Shown here: piece after piece, positions 2,537-12,830 of the stretch | How positions within the stretch are numbered: the stretch's first letter is position 1 | How the letters are laid out: each line of letters begins with the position of its first letter | Source of the DNA: a virus | Lineage: Duplodnaviria; Heunggongvirae; Uroviricota; Caudoviricetes | Strand: one strand, 5' to 3' | DNA: 12,830 bases | IMG/VR virus record: IMGVR_UViG_2671181030_000005 | Coordinates: 1 to 12,830 of that record | Notes under the pieces: generated by a model | Databases searched by the model: none | What the model saw: the letters and a program-made list of their open reading frames with translations, nothing else | What the model was told of the DNA's origin: nothing | Made by a program: the position numbers and the translations under genes

Positions 2537-4627
2537 CTACATATTCACGCATGATATATGCTCAATAATCACTGTCATCCGCCCGCTTGCAGCGGTGGTT
2601 CCAGCGATTTTTTTTACAACTAAATTGTTTTCAGCAACTGTGACCACGATAGATCCAACGTTTGTTTGTGTTTTTACTCCAGCGACTGATTCTATATAAT
2701 ATGGCAATGATAACCCGAAGAACCAGTATCCTTCTGTGAATAGCTTTGCTGCATGCTCATCCCTGTTTGAGTTATACATTACAGATATTTTTACTGCCGT
2801 TTTTCCATTTGTTGTCTTTATTGGTATTAAAAGTGTTGTAGATTCATTTTCAGCTACGTCTGCAGTTACTGCATAGATGCGTTGAGATGTATCGGAATTT
2901 ACGTTAGTTAGCGTATCAAACCCTCTGCAATTACTTACTTGACGAAATAAAACATCAAGAAAAGTTGTAACCCCTGGCAATGGGTCAAGATAATACAATG
3001 GTGCGATATTTCCATCGCCAAGATTGAGGTTTTGCACCCGTACTATAGCCTTCACATACGCAGAGGAACCTCTGCTTATTTGAATTACAGCAGTTGGCAC
3101 CGTTCCTGCCATTCCTGACGACTGAATGTTTCTGAAGATAACCTCTTTGAAGAGATATACATTAAAATTTGTGTTTCCTGTATTGCTATACAGAAATCCA
3201 ACATTCTCTATTATGGCATTACATTTTATATTTTCAGCAATGTAACCATCATATGTATTCGGCGAGTTATTATAAAATGATACCAGACGAGAGATAATAT
3301 CTGACGGATCTTCGCAGTTGACGTCAATATTTCGCAAAGAAATACCTCGAAATGTCGGTGCTCCACTGACAAGACCACCTGAAACGATTGACTGTGGGGC
3401 TGCTCCGTCAGCATAGAAGCAACTAAGTCCGTCTAGAGAACCTCCTGCCTGCAAGTCTACTGCTGACTGCCCAGCAGCAACAGCAAAGGCCTGTGTGCGC
3501 CGCTCTACAATATTGCTCACCCGAGAGTTCATTATCTGTGATTTGACTGATCTCTTCTGGCAGTCTTCAAAATACGAATCACTAATATCAAATACTGCTG
3601 ATAAATAGTTAGGGGATGATGCATATATCCCATCCGCATCCTGATATGGTCCAACTCGGAATACTGAAATATTCCTAACATAGCAATATTCAAAGTTTTG
3701 AACCATAAACCCGCGACCAACATTAGAACCACCTGAGCTTGAAATATCATAAGCTGAGGAATCTGACAGCCTAATCTCTTTCCATCTAAACAATGAGCCT
3801 GCCGTAATATATGCAGCAGTTGATAATCCTGTGTCAATTGCTTCCCTAGCGTTTCTTCCAGAATAGCCTGAAATAGATATTTTTGCGTTGTTATCGGATG
3901 AAAGCGCATAGAGTAGCTTTGCAGCATTGTTCTTGCCGTCAATGGCAATATCCTCTATGGAAAGAACGGATGAGCACGTTATTTTTAAAACAAATGGACT
4001 TACTGCTCCAGTATAGATAATAGTTCCATTTCTTATTGTTGTTTTTTTGTTGAAAACAACACTAATCATCTCGCTTGTTTTAATTGTCATTCCAGACAGG
4101 TCGATAACATACCCATCATATCTATTTAGCAAATAGATTAATTTTTCTCCTTCATCTGTCCCATCACCAGTTATTCCTGCCGATGATGGCGTAACATAAT
4201 ATATAGCACTTTGAACTGTTCCACCCTGCTGAAGGGGGATCATATCCGCACCTTTTCCTTTCCCTGTGGATGTAATTTCCTTCCTTAACTGATCAGGGTC
4301 GTATTTCAGCACATTAGGGAAATAAAACTGCTGCGCACCATATGCATCATAAACAGCCATAGAGTGGCCTTGCACAGTTACGAACTTGGCAATCTGTCCG
4401 TTATATACAGGATAACCAGCGGCGTTAATGATGATTGGCTGCGAAACAGGAACGTGAGAACCATCCTCATTCTCCACATAAACCTGAATCTGGTTTTCAG
4501 GATTTACCGGGTCAGTGTCAATTTTACCGATATAAATTTTACCATTGGCAACCGCTTTAAAAGAACGCGCCATAGTGAAGAGTTGCGAAGGCATGCTTAC
4601 CACAACATTTGCGGTGATATCTGACAT
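2537..4627 (-). CDS. P22-like tailspike protein (gene 9 homolog) with conserved N-terminal head-binding domain and divergent receptor-binding domain
   Basis: 696 aa from ATG at 4627 ([46 protein letters not shown]...), closely matching the recalled P22 gp9 N-terminus ([46 protein letters not shown]...); the remainder diverges from P22. GGAG 7 nt upstream of the ATG. The ORF-track N-terminal extension to 4726 has no homology and is rejected. Confidence 0.85.
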
Positions 4628-4747
4628 TTCATTGCTCCAGACGATGATATGATGCAACCATGATGTGATTGCATACCGAAATGGTACTATTGAGTATTTA
4701 TCCAGTAGGTTACGATGCCATTCCACCCAACTGGTGAGGCATCAAGG

Positions 4748-5014: not shown

Positions 5015-5084
5015 AAATCTAGTTTCCGGCTAAAATGGCATAGCCTTCATGATATCCTGTGAAAAACTAAGGAGAGTTAACCAT

Positions 5085-5570
5085 ATGAAAAAATCACTGT
5101 TAATTATCCCGCTTCTGCTGGTTGGATGCGCAAAAGTAAGTGACTATCAAGCAAGTTGCGAACAACGCTATCAAAAGCTTAGCGATATGGCTAATTGCCT
5201 TGATGCCAGTGTGAAGAACGACTCACGCATGGCATCAGCACCAACACCTAAGCTGTATGTCCTTGCTGCAAAGATGCTCGGGCAAGGTGTCGATGAAGGC
5301 AAGATAAGTGACGCACAGGCAAGACTTGAGCTTCAGAATCTTTATGTTCAATTACAAAGCCAAGAACAAGCCCAACAAATAGCACAAAGCCAAGCATTCC
5401 AGCAGGCTTTATTGAATTATCAGGCTGTAAACACAATGCAAGCGATCGAGCAAAAAGCGCGCCAGCCTGTTATAACTCAACCTTACCCAACACGCGTTGA
5501 CACATATACAAACTGCAATTCAGGATTTGGAAACACGGTAACATGCAACAGTAGCAGTAACATCAGATAA
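5085..5570 (+). CDS. Predicted lipoprotein with Gln-rich region, unknown function (occupies the sieA-like position between mnt and the ejection-type genes)
   Basis: 161 aa from ATG 5085; signal peptide MKKSLLIIPLLLVGC with lipobox LVGC; AAGGAG 10 nt upstream; Q-rich segment QLQSQEQAQQIAQSQAFQQALLNYQ. No family recognised. Confidence 0.7.
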   Translation: MKKSLLIIPLLLVGCAKVSDYQASCEQRYQKLSDMANCLDASVKNDSRMASAPTPKLYVLAAKMLGQGVDEGKISDAQARLELQNLYVQLQSQEQAQQIAQSQAFQQALLNYQAVNTMQAIEQKARQPVITQPYPTRVDTYTNCNSGFGNTVTCNSSSNIR

Positions 5571-6018: not shown

Positions 6019-7164
6019 TTACTGCCCCAAAGATGGAAGATATCCGTAGCGATTAATGAAGTCGATTGACAGCTCGGGGTGCTGCTTCAGGTAATCTATA
6101 GAAGCCTGAGGCGCTTCCACTCGCTTGATACCGTTTTGCTGAACGTACTTACCAACCGCCTCATTACGCTTCTGGTTGAGCGTGTTCAGGATGACGCCAG
6201 CGTTGCGACGAAAGGACTCCTCGCTCTGCGAGTTCTGCAGCGAACCAACAGCCTGGTCGAGCTTTTTGCCCTCGGCATCAGAAAGTGCGCCCATGCCTCG
6301 CATGGCCTGAACCGCTGTCAGGTATGCTTGTGATTTAAAGGTATCAAGTCGTGCCTGAGTGTCTGCAGCCTGTGAGCCTGGAACGTTGGGGATTACTCCA
6401 CGTAAGCCTGTAATGCTCTTAAGTGAAGGAGAACTAACGATATCGTTCAGAGTGAACATGCTGGTTGTGAGGGTGTTGATGCCGTCTTTGTAGCCATCAT
6501 TTAGCGCTTGCTGCTTCTGCTGCAACTGCTGGTTGTTGGCTGCTATGCGGCTCTGTATTTCCTGGCGCTTCAGGTCGTTAGTTTCTGCTGATAGCATCCG
6601 GTCAAGGCGCTTATTTTCGTTGTTAATGCGGTTTGTTTCTGCGTCCAGATTAATGCGCTGCTGACCTAAATTCGCCTGGATATCTTGTCCGCGCATTGTG
6701 ATTGCCTGATTCCGAGCGGCGGTTTGCGAATCCAGATCCTGACCGCGCATGGTAACCTGGCGACCCTGCATTTTATCCTGTAGGTCAAAGTATTTTTCGG
6801 GCCCGAGACTGTTCATCCCCAGGTGATCGACAAATTCGACGAACTGCCGCGGGTTCTGTTGGTACATCTGAGCGACGTCATGAGGATTAACGCCAACACG
6901 AGCTAACTCACCGGCGTTGTTTTGCAGCCATGATTGCATTGCTTCTGGAGACGATGACGCAAGGCGTGCGCCAGCCGCTAAGGTGCCGATAGAATTACGC
7001 TGGTCTTCATCAATGAATCCCATGCCTTTACGAACGGATTCAATCTGGTCTGGATATTGAGTAATCTCGTTAGCAACGCGCATGAAACCATCTTCGGTAT
7101 CTGCCACGCGATGCTCCACGACCTCCAGTTGAGGCCTGTAATCAGCTAACTTAACGACGCCCAT
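6019..7164 (-). CDS. Gln/Asn-rich phage structural protein, candidate ejection (DNA-transfer) protein; function uncertain
   Basis: 381-aa ORF, long uninterrupted; low-complexity coiled-coil-like Q/N-rich middle; lies where P22-like phages place ejection genes, upstream of the immI and tailspike region; directly followed in frame by the SLT ORF. Family assignment is positional inference, not motif-proven. Confidence 0.5.
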   Translation of the reverse strand: MGVVKLADYRPQLEVVEHRVADTEDGFMRVANEITQYPDQIESVRKGMGFIDEDQRNSIGTLAAGARLASSSPEAMQSWLQNNAGELARVGVNPHDVAQMYQQNPRQFVEFVDHLGMNSLGPEKYFDLQDKMQGRQVTMRGQDLDSQTAARNQAITMRGQDIQANLGQQRINLDAETNRINNENKRLDRMLSAETNDLKRQEIQSRIAANNQQLQQKQQALNDGYKDGINTLTTSMFTLNDIVSSPSLKSITGLRGVIPNVPGSQAADTQARLDTFKSQAYLTAVQAMRGMGALSDAEGKKLDQAVGSLQNSQSEESFRRNAGVILNTLNQKRNEAVGKYVQQNGIKRVEAPQASIDYLKQHPELSIDFINRYGYLPSLGQ

Positions 7165-7312
7165 GTTTCACTCCTGCTTTGGCTAGTCTGTAAACACCAA
7201 CAAGGCGCTCTGCGAACGCCCTGTTATTTGCTGCGGCTACCACTAATCCCTCAGGTGAATCAGGGTGTCGAATCTCTTCTTTTTCCTGGTATTTCTTACG
7301 ACGTTTTGTCAT
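7151..7312 (-). CDS. Small basic ORF (53 aa), possible deletion-junction fusion ORF
   Basis: ATG at 7312 with AGGAG 7 nt upstream; MTKRRKKYQEKEEIRHPDSPEGLVVAAANNRAFAERLVGVYRLAKAGVKHGRR; overlaps the start of the 381-aa gene by 14 nt; sits 32 bp downstream of the cII-like stop. Below the 60-aa cutoff of the ORF track; found by manual translation. Confidence 0.3.
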   Translation of the reverse strand: MTKRRKKYQEKEEIRHPDSPEGLVVAAANNRAFAERLVGVYRLAKAGVKHGRR

Positions 7313-7344
7313 AATTACTCCTGTGGATTGATCCAGTAATTCCC

Positions 7345-7641
7345 TCAGAATTGCATATCAATTTGCTCAGAATCCTCGGTGGCAGCCGGGGATTTTTTCT
7401 TTGTGATTCCATCCAATGCATACTTAAAAGCCCTGCTAATCGGACTGATGTCTGATGCCATTCCGAAAGCACACAAGACCGAAGCAATAAATCTCCAGTC
7501 CGTTCTGCTTATCTTCGATTCATGACAGCCAATCATCTTTGCCAGACCGCGCTGGGTAAGCGTTGACAGGTTGATGAGTAAATCAGTTTCAGCGCGATCA
7601 ATTTCTCGCTGTGTTGGCTTGCTATAACTTGCTTGTGTCAT
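7345..7641 (-). CDS. cII: CII-family transcriptional activator (lambda CII-like)
   Basis: 98 aa; C-terminus TKKKSPAATEDSEQIDMQF resembles recalled lambda CII C-terminus (TNKKRPAATERSEQIQMEF); helix-turn-helix-like core ...GLAKMIGCHESKISR...; located immediately downstream of cro on the same strand, as in lambda. Confidence 0.7.
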   Translation of the reverse strand: MTQASYSKPTQREIDRAETDLLINLSTLTQRGLAKMIGCHESKISRTDWRFIASVLCAFGMASDISPISRAFKYALDGITKKKSPAATEDSEQIDMQF

Positions 7642-7725
7642 TTGTTAATTTTCCAATAGTGAATAGTTAGTTGAAAGGTATGCGTGGAAACGCATATGGC
7701 CTTAGTTGGTCAGATATCTTGGGGC

Positions 7726-7740
7726 TCGCTTTGTCAGCGA
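7726..7740 (-). promoter_or_regulatory. nutR-like boxB hairpin (TCGCT-GACAA-AGCGA on the minus strand) between cro and cII
   Basis: 5-bp stem with GACAA pentaloop, the loop I recall for P22-type boxB; a boxA-like CGCTCTTT lies upstream on the same strand (about 7766..7774). Motif-level call. Confidence 0.4.
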
Positions 7741-7778
7741 CGTAGGACGAATGTCCATTGTGAAAAGAGCGGTGTTAC

Positions 7779-7979
7779 TTATGCAGTTGTTTTTTTGTTA
7801 CTTGGGAAGGGCTTTATTTCTTCCGCATAAACGCTTCCATCAGCGTTTATAGTTAAAAAAATCTTTCGGCCTGCATGAATGGCCTTGTTAATCGCGCTTT
7901 GATATACGCCGAGATCTTTAGCCGTCTTGGTTTGCCCAAAGCGTATTGCATAATCTTTCAGGGTTATGCGTTGTTCCAT
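7779..7979 (-). CDS. cro: Cro repressor, lambda type
   Basis: 66 aa [66 protein letters not shown]; differs from recalled lambda Cro at about two positions (M12I, V55I); AAGGAGG 7-8 nt upstream of ATG. Confidence 0.95.
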
Positions 7980-8002
7980 ACAACCTCCTTAGTACAGGCA
8001 AC

Positions 8003-8069
8003 CATTATCACCGCTAGAGGTAAAATAGTCAACACGCACGGTGTTAGAAGTTTATCCCTTGCGGTGATA
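8003..8069. promoter_or_regulatory. Lambda-type right operator region: OR1 (8006..8022), OR2 (8030..8046), OR3 (8053..8069) with divergent PR (toward cro) and PRM (toward cI)
   Basis: Three 17-bp operators: TATCACCGCTAGAGGTA, CAACACGCACGGTGTTA, TATCCCTTGCGGTGATA; PR -35 TTGACT and -10 GATAAT on the minus strand; layout as in lambda. Confidence 0.85.
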
Positions 8070-8076
8070 GATTTAA

Positions 8077-8793
<717 letters not shown>

Positions 8794-8824
8794 TTGTTTT
8801 ATTTTTCACGTAATAGGATGATTT

Positions 8825-9166
8825 ATGACACAATTTCAACTTGCATTAATCGCTAGAGAAGTTGATGGAGAAGTCATCCATCTTCGCACCAAAGACGGAT
8901 ACATCAATGCCACCGCGATGTGCAAGTCTGCGGGGAAGCTACTTGCTGACTATACACGACTAAAAACAACACAAGATTTTTTTGATGAATTATCACGCGA
9001 TATGGGGATTCCCATATCGGAGTTAATTCAATCATTTAAAGGCGGAAGAGCAGAGAATCAAGGGACTTGGGTTCATCCAGACATCGCAATTAATTTAGCT
9101 CAGTGGCTATCTCCAAAATTTGCAGTGCAAGTATCGAGATGGGTGCGTGAGTGGATGTCAGGTTAA
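8825..9166 (+). CDS. KilA-N domain protein (N-terminal part of a probably larger ancestral gene)
   Basis: 113 aa; KilA-N/Bro-N-like features (…DGEVIHLRTKDGYINATAMCKSAG…GTWVHPDIAINLAQWLSPKFAVQVSRWV); AGGA 6 nt upstream; sits downstream of cI where lambda has rexAB. Its TAA stop is in frame with the next ORF. Confidence 0.7.
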   Translation: MTQFQLALIAREVDGEVIHLRTKDGYINATAMCKSAGKLLADYTRLKTTQDFFDELSRDMGIPISELIQSFKGGRAENQGTWVHPDIAINLAQWLSPKFAVQVSRWVREWMSG

Positions 9167-9205
9167 AGAGCGCCTGCCGAACTCCCTATCCACCTTAAGC
9201 GGTAT

Positions 9206-9584
9206 ATGACAAACCGAGGCAGAGTTCCTCATACGCACTTTTCTATGCTTAATGAACTGACGTTTAACTTGGTTGCGCCACTTGAACAGGCCGGATATAC
9301 GCTGCCAGAAAAAATGGTCCCTGATATTTCAGAGGGTAGGGTTTTCTCGCAATGGCTCCGTGACAACCGGGGGGTTGAGCCGAAGACATTCCCAACATAT
9401 AACCATGAGTACCCAGATGGCCGGACATTCCCGGTACGTCTATACCCAAACGAATATTGCAGATTTCAAACAATACTTCAACGAAGTGTGGCTGCCTCAG
9501 TACGCTCCTAAATATTTTGCTGAACGAGACCAAAGGGCATTGACGTTGATTGAGAAAATCATGCTACCTGACCTTGATTCCTAA
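9206..9584 (+). pseudogene. Disrupted ORF: continuation of the KilA-N gene, carrying an in-frame stop (9164..9166) and a frameshift near 9450..9460
   Basis: ORF 9206..9511 is in the same frame as the KilA-N ORF, separated by a single TAA; a second overlapping ORF in another frame runs to 9584 and ends just before a terminator hairpin. ATG 8825 to stop 9584 is 760 nt (3n+1), which fits one extra base in an ancestral 252-codon gene. No convincing RBS before 9206. Confidence 0.5.
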
Positions 9585-9592
9585 ATGTTATT

Positions 9593-9614
9593 CCCGGCCA
9601 CAGAGCCGGGTTTT
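9593..9614 (+). terminator. Rho-independent terminator ending the cI operon
   Basis: Stem CCCGGC / GCCGGG (9593..9598 and 9605..9610) with 6-nt loop, followed by TTTTCTTT. Confidence 0.6.
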
Positions 9615-9770
9615 CTTTGCCTCACGATCCCCCTCACCCAAGAACACATAACCAATTGTATCTATTTGAAAATAAATAGATACAACTCACTAAACATAGC
9701 AGTTCAGATCTCTCACCTACCAAACAATGCACCACTGCAAAAAATAAATTCATATAAAAAACATACAGAT

Positions 9771-9833
9771 AACCATCTGCGGTGATGAATTATCTCTAGC
9801 GGTGTTGAAATAAATACCACTGGCGGTGATACT
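9771..9833 (+). promoter_or_regulatory. Lambda-type left operator region: OL3 (9771..9787), OL2 (9791..9807), OL1 (9815..9831) with PL (-35 TTGAAA 9805..9810, -10 GATACT 9828..9833)
   Basis: AACCATCTGCGGTGATG, TATCTCTAGCGGTGTTG, TACCACTGGCGGTGATA; 17-bp spacer between -35 and -10; matches recalled lambda OL/PL apart from single-base differences. Confidence 0.8.
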
Positions 9834-9902
9834 AAACACATCAGCAGGACGCACTACTCACCAGGGCGGTGAATATACAACGATTCAAATATGAATCTAC
9901 GG

Positions 9903-9917
9903 CGCTGACAAAGCGCA
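9903..9917 (+). promoter_or_regulatory. nutL-like boxB hairpin (GCGCT-GACAA-AGCGC) in the PL leader
   Basis: Perfect 5-bp stem with GACAA pentaloop about 62 nt downstream of the predicted PL start; matches recalled P22-type boxB. No N-like (Arg-rich) ORF follows. Confidence 0.45.
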
Positions 9918-9979
9918 ATAACCAAAGTGAACTTTGGGGTGAATGCAGAAGCTAACCTTCTCGGCGGAGGCGCTTTGCA

Positions 9980-10273
9980 ATGATTACGCTAAGCGAAATG
10001 CTTCGCTCATATAAACCAGATGAACACACTAAGGACGCTAACGAAACAAACGCTGGTTGGATAAGCTGTAGTGAGCGAATGCCGAACGATAAACAGTATG
10101 TTTGGTGTTGGGGTAAGTCTTACGGCTGGACTGAGTGCGATACCTTCGAAGGGTATTACGATTGGTCGAGAAACAAATGGTGGGCAGTTACTGACGATGG
10201 GGAAGAACCGGCATCGAAAGTAACCCACTGGATGCCGCTACCAGAACCGCCTCAGGAGGTTAACCGTGGCTAA
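9980..10273 (+). CDS. DUF551-like phage early protein
   Basis: 97 aa; GGAGG 9 nt upstream; Trp- and Cys-rich with C-terminal VTHWMPLPEPP, a motif I associate with DUF551 proteins of lambdoid early-left operons. Confidence 0.7.
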   Translation: MITLSEMLRSYKPDEHTKDANETNAGWISCSERMPNDKQYVWCWGKSYGWTECDTFEGYYDWSRNKWWAVTDDGEEPASKVTHWMPLPEPPQEVNRG

Positions 10274-10373: not shown

Positions 10374-10718
10374 ATGTCAGATTTGGCTATGAAGGTTTTG
10401 AAATGGCAATCAACTGGCGATGTCGGCATCAGTAGCGCAACTCTTGCCTCAATCGCATGTGGCCTGAAAAAGAATATCTATGGTCATCACTTCGGCGCTC
10501 CCCATGACGCAGACGATTTCCAACGATGCGTTGCGCTTGTTGAGCAGATTCCAGAAATCAGAGATTCATTCGACAAGGTTGCAAAGCGCGTTCCGGCATT
10601 CAAAGGAATCCTCAACGAATGGGATTCCCTAGTTGCTCTGTTGAAGTCGGAAATGAAGATACACGGAAACAAAGCACCAGAGACTTACAGAAGAATCAGA
10701 GAGCTACGCAAGGACTAA
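10374..10718 (+). CDS. Hypothetical protein, 114 aa, no recognised family
   Basis: GGAG 7 nt upstream of ATG; uninterrupted ORF with ordinary amino-acid composition (MSDLAMKVLKWQSTGDVGISSATLASIACGLKK...); bracketed by terminators on both sides. Confidence 0.6.
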   Translation: MSDLAMKVLKWQSTGDVGISSATLASIACGLKKNIYGHHFGAPHDADDFQRCVALVEQIPEIRDSFDKVAKRVPAFKGILNEWDSLVALLKSEMKIHGNKAPETYRRIRELRKD

Positions 10719-10853: not shown

Positions 10854-11054
10854 ATGCAACACGAACTACAGCCTGATTCACTGGTTGATTTGAAATTCAT
10901 CATGGCCGATACTGGCTTCGGTAAAACCTTCATCTATGATCGGATTAAGTCCGGAGACCTTCCAAAAGCCAAAGTTATCCACGGGCGAGCAAGATGGTTA
11001 TATCGTGACCATTGTGAATTCAAAAATAAGCTCTTAAGCCGCGCCAATGGGTAA
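10854..11054 (+). CDS. AlpA-family small DNA-binding protein (excisionase / recombination directionality factor candidate)
   Basis: 66 aa MQHELQPDSLVDLKFIMADTGFGKTFIYDRIKSGDLPKAKVIHGRARWLYRDHCEF...; matches the AlpA/Xis-type HTH pattern; GGAG 9 nt upstream; located at the element end opposite the integrase. Confidence 0.75.
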   Translation: MQHELQPDSLVDLKFIMADTGFGKTFIYDRIKSGDLPKAKVIHGRARWLYRDHCEFKNKLLSRANG

Positions 11055-11582: not shown

Positions 11583-12830
11583 CTATATTGCTGAAGGTAC
11601 AGGCGTTTCCATAACTATTTGCTCGCGTTTTTTACTCAGGAAGAAAATGCCAAATAGCAACATCAGGCAGACAATACCCGAAATTGCGAAGAAAACTGTC
11701 TGGTAGCCTGCGTGGTCAAAGAGTATCCCAGTCGGCGTTGAAAGCAGCACAATCCCAAGCGAACTGGCAATTTGAAAACCAATCAGAAAGATCGTCGACG
11801 ACAGGCGCTTATCAAAGTTTGCCACGCTGTATTTGAAGACGGATATGACACAAAGTGGAACCTCAATGGCATGTAACAGCTTCACTAATGAAATAATCCA
11901 GGGGTTAACGAACAGCGCGCAGGAAAGGATACGCAACGCCATAATCACAACACCGATAAGTAATGCATTTTTTGGCCCTACCCGATTCACAAAGAAAGGA
12001 ATAATCGCCATGCACAGCGCTTCGAGTACCACCTGGAATGAGTTGAGATAACCATACAGGCGCGTTCCTACATCGTGTGATTCGAATAAACCTGCATAAA
12101 AGACAGGAAAAAGTTGTTGATCAAAAATGTTATAGAAAGACCACGTCCCCACAATAAATATGACGAAAACCCAGAAGTTTCGATCCTTGAAAACTGCGAT
12201 AAAATCCTCTTTTTTTACCCCTCCCGCATCCGCCGCTACGCACTGGTGATCCTTATCTTTAAAACACATGTTGATCATCATAAATACAGCGCCAAATAGC
12301 GAGACCAACCAGAAGTTGATATGGGGACTGATACTAAAAAATATGCCGGCAAAGAACGCGCCAATAGCATAGCCAAAAGATCCCCAGGCGCGCGCTGTTC
12401 CATATTCGAAATGAAAATTTCGCGCCATTTTTTCGGTGAAGCTGTCAAGCAAACCGCATCCCGCCAGATACCCCAGGCCAAAAAAGAGCGCCCCCAGAAT
12501 TAGACCTACAGAAAAATTGCTTTGCAGTAACGGTTCATAAACGTAAATCATAAACGGTCCGGTCAAGACCAGGATGAAACTCATACACCAGATGAGCGGT
12601 TTCTTCAGACCGAGTTTATCCTGAACGATGCCGTAGAACATCATAAATAGAATGCTGGTAAACTGGTTGACCGAATAAAGTGTACCTAATTCCGTCCCTG
12701 TCAACCCTAGATGTCCTTTCAGCCAAATAGCGTATAACGACCACCACAGCGACCAGGAAATAAAAAAGAGAAATGAGTAACTGGATGCAAAACGATAGTA
12801 CGCATTTCTGAATGGAATATTCAGTGCCAT
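11583..12830 (-). CDS. cscB: Sucrose:H+ symporter CscB (LacY-family MFS permease)
   Basis: 415-aa ORF whose ATG is the last three bases of the window; MALNIPFRNAYYRFASSYSFLFFISWSLWWSLYAIWLKGHLG... recalled as CscB of the chromosomal csc sucrose regulon (E. coli W / EC3132 type); 12-TM-like hydrophobic profile. Confidence 0.9.
   Translation of the reverse strand: MALNIPFRNAYYRFASSYSFLFFISWSLWWSLYAIWLKGHLGLTGTELGTLYSVNQFTSILFMMFYGIVQDKLGLKKPLIWCMSFILVLTGPFMIYVYEPLLQSNFSVGLILGALFFGLGYLAGCGLLDSFTEKMARNFHFEYGTARAWGSFGYAIGAFFAGIFFSISPHINFWLVSLFGAVFMMINMCFKDKDHQCVAADAGGVKKEDFIAVFKDRNFWVFVIFIVGTWSFYNIFDQQLFPVFYAGLFESHDVGTRLYGYLNSFQVVLEALCMAIIPFFVNRVGPKNALLIGVVIMALRILSCALFVNPWIISLVKLLHAIEVPLCVISVFKYSVANFDKRLSSTIFLIGFQIASSLGIVLLSTPTGILFDHAGYQTVFFAISGIVCLMLLFGIFFLSKKREQIVMETPVPSAI

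Follow-up and report, generated by a model that had tools for sequence, protein, structure and literature searches.

Overall organization of the locus

Here we analyse a 12,830-nt stretch of DNA (hereafter the window; all positions refer to it), a piece of Escherichia coli chromosome at the argW tRNA site that carries a prophage remnant with a lambda-type immunity region (Table 1). The window is 100% identical to E. coli EC2641, save for an IS3-family element inserted in the EC2641 tailspike gene, which in the window is a single open reading frame (ORF) of 729 aa. An Rfam scan of the window returned tRNA-Arg only. The prophage spans about 10 kb, and its replication, lysis, head and N genes are absent. 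The minus-strand ORF at 6019–7164 is a fusion, in which the first ~35 residues of an O-like replication protein are joined to residues 98–435 of a P22-type ejection protein; it thus marks a large internal deletion of the replication, lysis and head genes. On the right, PL is followed directly by a 5′-truncated DUF551 gene (~9900–10273), and the missing N and early-left genes indicate a second deletion junction near 10020. Two plus-strand ORFs elsewhere in the prophage are conserved in phages: 10374–10718 (PHROG 1229, E 3e-51) and 5049–5570 (PHROG 6067, E 2e-110), the latter with a lipoprotein-like N terminus.

The immunity region shares ~95% nucleotide identity with lambda, HK97, HK106 and HK544 over cro–OR–cI and OL/PL, and its cI gene is ~95% identical to lambda cI. 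The minus strand has a PR-like promoter at 8032–8004, and a promoter-like site is found at 9805–9833 within the OL/PL region. Only the cargo between cI and OL differs between phages: it is rexAB in lambda, hicAB in mEp234 and HK106, and the remnant described here in the window. Accordingly, the flanks but not the cargo match lambda, and no RexA- or RexB-like protein was found in the cI–OL slot. The cargo is closed by a strong G+C hairpin (9593–9610) followed by a T-run; the annotations of HK542, HK244 and HK544 give this sequence as the terminator of the immunity region. Two further ORFs in the slot, one of 89 aa on the minus strand (9264–9533) and one of 66 aa on the plus strand (9585–9785), had no family match and were treated as non-coding.

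Table 1 Features of the window and of the cI–OL cargo slot.
Feature	Position	Strand	Description
yfdC	1–933
tRNA-Arg	1009–1080
intS integrase	1209–2402
Tailspike gene	2537–4726	−
arc/mnt-like genes, then fragments of DNA-ejection and transglycosylase genes	Between tailspike and cII
cII	7345–7641	−
cro	7779–7979	−
OR/PRM–PR region	7980–8079		Between cro and cI; divergent cro and cI ORFs
cI repressor	8080–8793	+	Intact repressor of lambda-immunity type (237 aa); matching records name it cI or LexA family
Stretch positionally equivalent to BTP1 aba	8794–8858		~30 nt upstream and first 34 nt of gene; position per PMC8585504
Shine–Dalgarno AGGA	8815–8818	+	6 nt 5′ of the ATG of the bstA remnant; read from sequence
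Segment 1	8825–9166	+	Codons 1–113 and premature TAA; ORF of 113 aa (ORF list); complete KilA-N DNA-binding domain; Pfam and PHROG 6287
Nonsense codon TAA	9164–9166	+	G-to-T at 9164 in Glu114 GAA; interdomain linker; alignment to intact alleles
Segment 2	9167–9457	+	Former codons 115–211; linker and first part of BstA_C; in frame with segment 1
2-nt deletion site	9456–9458	+	CT or TC gone from TAT-CTT-GCA; T9458 is the remnant of the Leu212 codon
Segment 3	9459–9584	+	Former codons 213–253 and native TAA (9582–9584); last part of BstA_C, other frame
Intrinsic terminator of the cI–bstA unit	9593–9620	+	CCCGGC-cacaga-GCCGGG then TTTTCTTT; terminator scan
OL/PL region	9780–9880	+	Right-hand edge of the rex-position cargo slot
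DUF551 fragment	Right of OL/PL
xis/torI	10854–11054
Sucrose permease gene	11583–12830	−

One gene spread across three frames

The interval 8825–9584 is one ancestral 253-codon gene, now spread across three frames. The Pfam KilA-N domain covers residues 13–112 of the first ORF (E 1.7e-27). Past its TAA the same frame is open again as far as 9457, and a third frame then runs from 9459 to the native stop. Translated separately, the fragments 8825–9163, 9167–9508 and 9417–9581 match positions 6–121 (E 4e-28), 154–253 (E 8e-34) and 248–301 (E 2e-9) of the 304-position profile PHROG 6287; three fragments falling on consecutive parts of one profile make chance impossible. A precomputed Pfam BstA_C match is also present on a 55-aa ORF called at segment 3 in related contigs.

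In phage PhiR5_2, the same position after a near-identical cI is occupied by an uninterrupted gene of 762 nt (253 codons), to which the window sequence is 99.4% identical. Five differences between the two alleles lie within the gene span, including an A/G at 8833 that is synonymous, the T/G at 9164 that turns Glu114 from GAA into TAA, a 2-nt gap at 9456–9458 and a T/C at 9474. The sequences also diverge 3′ of the terminator, at ~9628–9640. The deletion was placed by alignment to five intact or deletion-free alleles. The product of segment 1 is identical to residues 1–113 of the intact 253-aa protein, and Glu114 comes directly after the end of the KilA-N match, in a linker that appears as a dip in pLDDT at residues 111–120 in the structure model of a homologue.

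The initial annotation had read the locus as a single rex-position gene broken by one nonsense codon and one frameshift, its three frame segments being followed by a terminator. Alignment to the intact PhiR5_2 gene bears out the former, and the ORF list, the sequence and the terminator scan the latter. Two details have to be corrected: the frameshift had been taken as a 1-nt insertion, whereas alignment makes it a 2-nt deletion with an equal effect on the frame (762 − 2 = 760 nt), and the ancestor had 253 codons instead of 252. Intact homologues extending across all three segments, the existence of which had been left conditional, were found at the same post-cI position.

Family identity of the repaired protein

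BstA is a prophage-encoded abortive-infection (Abi) protein that is strongly expressed in lysogens, and its gene typically lies right after the repressor gene, presumably under the same promoter (Owen et al. 2021, PMC8585504). It co-localises with the replicating DNA of an infecting phage, phage DNA replication fails, and the protected cell still lyses, the epidemic being halted at the population level (PMC8585504). The prophage's own induction is protected from BstA by aba, which in the Salmonella prophage BTP1 is a 63-bp DNA (−29 to +34 of bstA) with terminal CCCGCC repeats; aba acts as DNA, without a protein, and can do so in trans at high copy, each BstA variant having an aba specific to it (PMC8585504). 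The three BstA proteins tested are ~298–307 aa in length, natural homologues with the N-terminal domain only were remarked on, and the shared synteny with lambda rexAB was pointed out by the authors themselves (PMC8585504).

In the repaired window protein, Pfam KilA-N is found at residues 13–112. The whole protein is matched by PHROG 6287, a family annotated as 'BstA abortive infection system, replication inhibitor' (E 1.8e-82), and residues 120–237 by the BstA model of PADLOC (E 2.5e-20). By BLASTP, residues 133–251 align to residues 171–302 of BTP1 BstA with 29% identity (E 5e-15), and the N-terminal domains of the two proteins were not aligned. When BTP1 BstA was compared with a 52-sequence family profile using hhalign, the match (probability 97.9%, 186 columns) reached back into the KilA-N region. 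A large protein search returned 2748 relatives, and all full-length close homologues among the matches listed carry both PF04383 (KilA-N) and PF26567 (BstA_C). Pfam and NCBIfam scans found nothing in the C-terminal half, the Pfam set used being one without PF26567; the BstA family was thus recognised only via PHROGs, PADLOC and the precomputed PF26567 annotations. The C-terminal domain had no match among solved structures, and no Rex family was returned by the PHROG, Pfam or PADLOC scans.

The gene therefore combines the features of the BstA family: an N-terminal KilA-N or KilA-N-like domain, a BstA_C domain homologous to that of BTP1 BstA, and a location directly downstream of, and co-oriented with, a repressor gene, with its own intrinsic terminator. 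Judged by these sequence features, the intact protein is a member of the BstA family of abortive-infection proteins, and its activity is predicted. The initial annotation had proposed a candidate undescribed immunity-region function; the BstA family has, however, been described at just this cI-downstream position (PMC8585504). Against BstA function stands the identity of only 29% to BTP1 BstA, confined to the C-terminal half, and the function of the short (253–257 aa) subfamily with a canonical KilA-N domain is a prediction. This subfamily appears to lie outside the three proteins tested by Owen et al., and part 1 of the two-part Table S1 of that paper holds no 762-nt E. coli entry (PMC8585504). 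Between two intact alleles compared, 29 nucleotide differences result in 1 amino acid difference (pN/pS ~0.01), and the pattern of substitution indicates strong purifying selection on the intact alleles.

In the window, the TAA and the 2-nt deletion leave no uninterrupted ORF with both domains, and the gene is unable to encode the two. Because of these lesions the copy is to be regarded as a pseudogene and not as a working member of the family, and 8825–9584 is very probably a pseudogene of a bstA-family abortive-infection gene in the cI–OL/PL cargo slot.

Relationship to known systems

BTP1 BstA (st313-td, STMMW_03531) has the same position and orientation after the repressor gene as the window gene, and likewise its own intrinsic terminator. 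The repaired protein is shorter (253 versus 307 aa) and has a canonical Pfam KilA-N domain, and the window copy, in contrast to the BTP1 gene, is inactivated and has no CCCGCC-type aba repeats: between 8770 and 8900 we found no terminal direct repeats of the BTP1 kind, only short inverted repeats, although aba differs between homologues and has been mapped in BTP1 alone, so that little can be read from the lack of the BTP1 motif. BstA-Ec (E. coli NCTC10963, E4V89_RS07420) and BstA-Kp (K. pneumoniae Kp52.145) are experimentally active proteins of enterobacterial prophages, each with a cognate aba; at ~298 aa and 42–48% identity to BTP1 BstA, they belong to the long subfamily.

Lambda RexA and RexB occupy the same cI–OL/PL slot, with flanks ~95% identical at the nucleotide level, and are likewise a prophage Abi system expressed with cI. 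They have no sequence similarity to the bstA-family gene. RexAB consists of two proteins and depolarises the membrane, whereas the bstA type is a single DNA-binding protein that blocks replication. KilA-N domains also occur in stand-alone proteins and other fusions (P1 KilA, Bro-N/Ant-type antirepressors, and APSES proteins such as Mbp1); the stand-alone state of the window domain differs in being secondary, the result of a stop in a two-domain gene.

Spread of the broken allele

The 847 nt from 8794 to 9640 are identical (847/847) in the complete genomes EC2641 and 1008S19, and also in ten independently sampled isolate and metagenome contigs. Strain 81 and eight IMG/VR viral contigs carry both lesions in copies that are nearly identical. 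Resequencing of the stop and the frameshift, suggested initially as a guard against sequencing error, is unneeded given the identical allele in many independent assemblies. The 113-aa product is encoded on at least 1000 contigs (1970 index blocks of the collection), and the matching intact protein on 924. The 253-aa type is found in 22 of 5426 complete E. coli genomes: it is intact in 17, carries both lesions in 3 (EC2641, 1008S19 and 81) and has the stop only in 2 (H5 and H6). Directly downstream of cI, phage PhiR5_2 and the 17 complete E. coli genomes have their intact alleles (99.4% nucleotide identity) where the window has its remnant; E. coli D5 (WP_000191544.1) is a strain with such an allele.

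In ten sampled contigs, 100% identity extends over ~7124–10020 (orf53–cII–cro–cI–remnant–OL/PL), and the flanks of this cassette differ: some are P22-like at argW, some lambda-like beside ybhC, and others carry O/P or DnaB replication genes. An identical cassette in the neighbourhoods of different prophages indicates that the pseudogene moves within a mobile lambda-immunity cassette. The identical broken allele also occurs in fuller prophages, so the lesions are older than the decay of the prophage in the window.

Strain 81 (L007:2288–3790) holds a more decayed cassette with a frameshifted cI. Its bstA remnant has three more lesions, all past the stop: one base lost from the G6 run at 9369, CC-to-TA at 9421–9422 and a 3-nt deletion in the terminator stem. 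A 257-aa relative (86% amino acid and 77% nucleotide identity) is present in 117 complete E. coli genomes (for example, STEC383, L010:2968–3741). Its surroundings are a Rac/Qin-like region close to hokD, with no repressor gene preceding it, and every listed genome has it in full length, unlike the often-broken cI-linked type. In RefSeq/PGAP the 113-aa remnant is listed like any normal protein, under the name 'KilA-N domain-containing protein' (WP_227164514.1), and is not flagged as a pseudogene; the downstream fragments have no annotation or are called 'hypothetical protein'.

A stop at Glu114 on two backgrounds

The H5/H6 allele is ~96% identical to that of the window, comes after a different, XRE-type repressor and lacks the 2-nt deletion. 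It nevertheless carries the same G-to-T change at the base that corresponds to window 9164 (L008:3368–3371), and this second-background stop is also present in one viral contig and one metagenome contig (L023 and L091). The sequence is GGC TAA in H5/H6 and GGT TAA in the window, and the matching intact alleles read GGC GAA and GGT GAA. All four combinations thus exist at the adjacent sites 9163 and 9164, which requires a second G-to-T event, a recombination junction between neighbouring bases or a back-mutation beside an imported stop. Alleles do show fine-scale mosaicism (L091). A third case of the stop may be a Klebsiella variant, in which a 113-aa N-terminal ORF is accompanied by an intact C-terminal ORF that is also 113 aa long.

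Of the 109 single-base changes that could create a nonsense codon in the gene, only 1 yields the stop at Glu114; the coincidence of this stop on two backgrounds was noticed after the fact. Other truncations of the gene leave 69, 81, 144, 175, 176 or 239 aa. Among window-type alleles, extra lesions number 0 in the first 342 nt and ~5 in the next 418 nt, a skew with P ~0.05 that rests on a small count, two of the lesions being in the G6 run. We found no templating repeat, quasi-palindrome or second copy of the motif that could explain a hotspot at 9164, and the local DNA fold there is no better than that of shuffled sequences (z 0.74). A 17-base pattern for the nonsense allele gave 61 matches in genome contigs, from unrelated taxa and at about the number expected by chance, and a 24-base pattern run against metagenomes gave one real locus, L091. 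An 88-aa product with E180 (P0042) raised the question whether the 2-nt deletion had arisen more than once; this was rejected, as one more point mutation on a window-type allele suffices to explain it.

The same stop on a second background, together with the abundance of the truncated ORF, is not predicted by simple neutral decay. The occurrence on two backgrounds suggests a parallel origin of the Glu114 stop and, possibly, selection for a product consisting of the KilA-N domain only.

Proposed mechanism and alternative explanations

The OR/PRM–PR region is the presumed source of a lysogenic transcript that would run through cI into the cargo gene; co-transcription from PRM is proposed because of the precedents of lambda rexAB and of BstA (Owen et al. 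2021), and the remnant is probably still transcribed with cI because cI, OR and PRM look intact. The intact 253-aa form, with its N-terminal KilA-N/APSES DNA-binding domain and C-terminal BstA_C domain, would be made in the lysogen, presumably from the cI transcript. If it acts like the BstA proteins of BTP1, K. pneumoniae and E. coli NCTC10963, it would be drawn to the replicating DNA of an infecting phage, replication would be blocked and the infection aborted. The prophage's own lytic growth would be spared by aba, a short DNA at the gene's 5′ end. In the window, the G-to-T change puts a stop at the domain linker, and the 2-nt deletion a frameshift inside BstA_C. The stop probably came first and the deletion later, under relaxed constraint, since stop-only alleles exist and no deletion-only allele was seen. 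At most the 113-aa KilA-N domain would be made from the window copy, and the defence would be lost; the domain may be produced, with no Abi activity left.

The pseudogene reading has to be weighed against others. The 113-aa ORF might be a selected stand-alone gene with only the downstream frames being junk; it could then have a regulatory role, counteract BstA (by dominant-negative or anti-BstA action) or act together with aba DNA. The truncation falls exactly at the domain boundary, in the predicted linker, so that the effector is lost and the DNA-binding domain kept; the same GAA-to-TAA change at codon 114, one of 109 one-step nonsense changes, is seen on two nucleotide backgrounds, for which a common origin needs a recombination junction between two adjacent bases (9163 differs); the 113-aa product outnumbers the intact one on contigs (at least 1000 versus 924); all extra lesions lie past the stop (0 in 342 nt versus ~5 in 418 nt); and natural homologues consist of the N-terminal domain only (PMC8585504). 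Yet these extra lesions are few (P ~0.05, two in the G6 run), the abundance is accounted for by hitch-hiking in a 100%-identical lambda-immunity cassette, the other truncations, from 69 to 239 aa, are as in ordinary decay, and the fine mosaicism of L091 is real and leaves room for a recombinational origin. On balance we regard a selected stand-alone gene as unlikely. A more specific form, in which the E114 stop is a recurrent, selected linker truncation that generates a KilA-N-only, aba-bearing 'cheater' allele, is quite doubtful. Were it true, the DNA-binding domain and the self-immunity DNA would have been kept to neutralise or evade a cognate BstA in related lysogens and the costly effector dropped, which would account for a broken allele that is as common as the intact one and moves with the lambda-immunity cassette.

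Retention of the remnant for its 5′ DNA, as a working aba directed against BstA, is compatible with a protein pseudogene; carrying the broken gene, a phage would be able to infect related lysogens despite their cognate BstA and be spared the cost of an Abi protein of its own. BTP1 aba indeed works without protein, in trans and in a homologue-specific manner (PMC8585504), the 5′ end and the upstream spacer are unchanged in all window-type alleles examined, and some carriers seem to be complete prophages with replication genes (L012, L014 and L017). The 8770–8900 stretch is, however, devoid of terminal direct repeats, an aba in the short subfamily is putative, and in the window copy it would be useless, because that prophage, deprived of its replication, lysis and head genes, cannot replicate. 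We consider such retention rather improbable. A working split or recoded gene, expressed by readthrough and frameshifting or by re-initiation at ATG 9206 or 9245, would fit the nonsense-only alleles (H5/H6 and Klebsiella), which keep an intact C-terminal ORF of 113 to 126 aa that is annotated as a gene. In the window the C-terminal domain is itself frameshifted, there is no Shine–Dalgarno sequence before 9206 or 9245 and no slippery sequence at 9456, and TAA is the strongest stop codon, all of which makes recoding very improbable. That both lesions were introduced by faulty sequencing or assembly of an intact gene is a general possibility only: the error-prone G6 run at 9368–9373 is nearby, yet neither lesion is in it or in any other homopolymer. 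The 847-nt identity in two complete genomes and ten independent contigs, the nearly identical copies from strain 81 and eight viral contigs, which share both lesions, and the 1970 index blocks with the 113-aa product already refute this explanation, to which we attach practically no probability.

Discussion

For defence biology as such, the gain from this locus is small: the family, its post-cI position and the logic of its self-immunity were published in 2021, and the window copy is presumably dead. With the BstA family known, what is left to add is the intact short subfamily, its predicted members being 29% identical to BTP1 BstA over half its length. The intact 253-aa allele (WP_000191544.1) represents a compact BstA subfamily in which the KilA-N domain is canonical and the structure is predicted with confidence; it could be a handy model for how BstA_C stops replication. 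Because the 113-aa remnant is annotated as an ordinary KilA-N protein, protein-based censuses of defence genes mislabel or miss thousands of loci. The remaining interest lies in the parallel linker stop and in the wide spread of the broken allele; if selected, the linker stop would be a natural case of a defence gene turned into an anti-defence allele.
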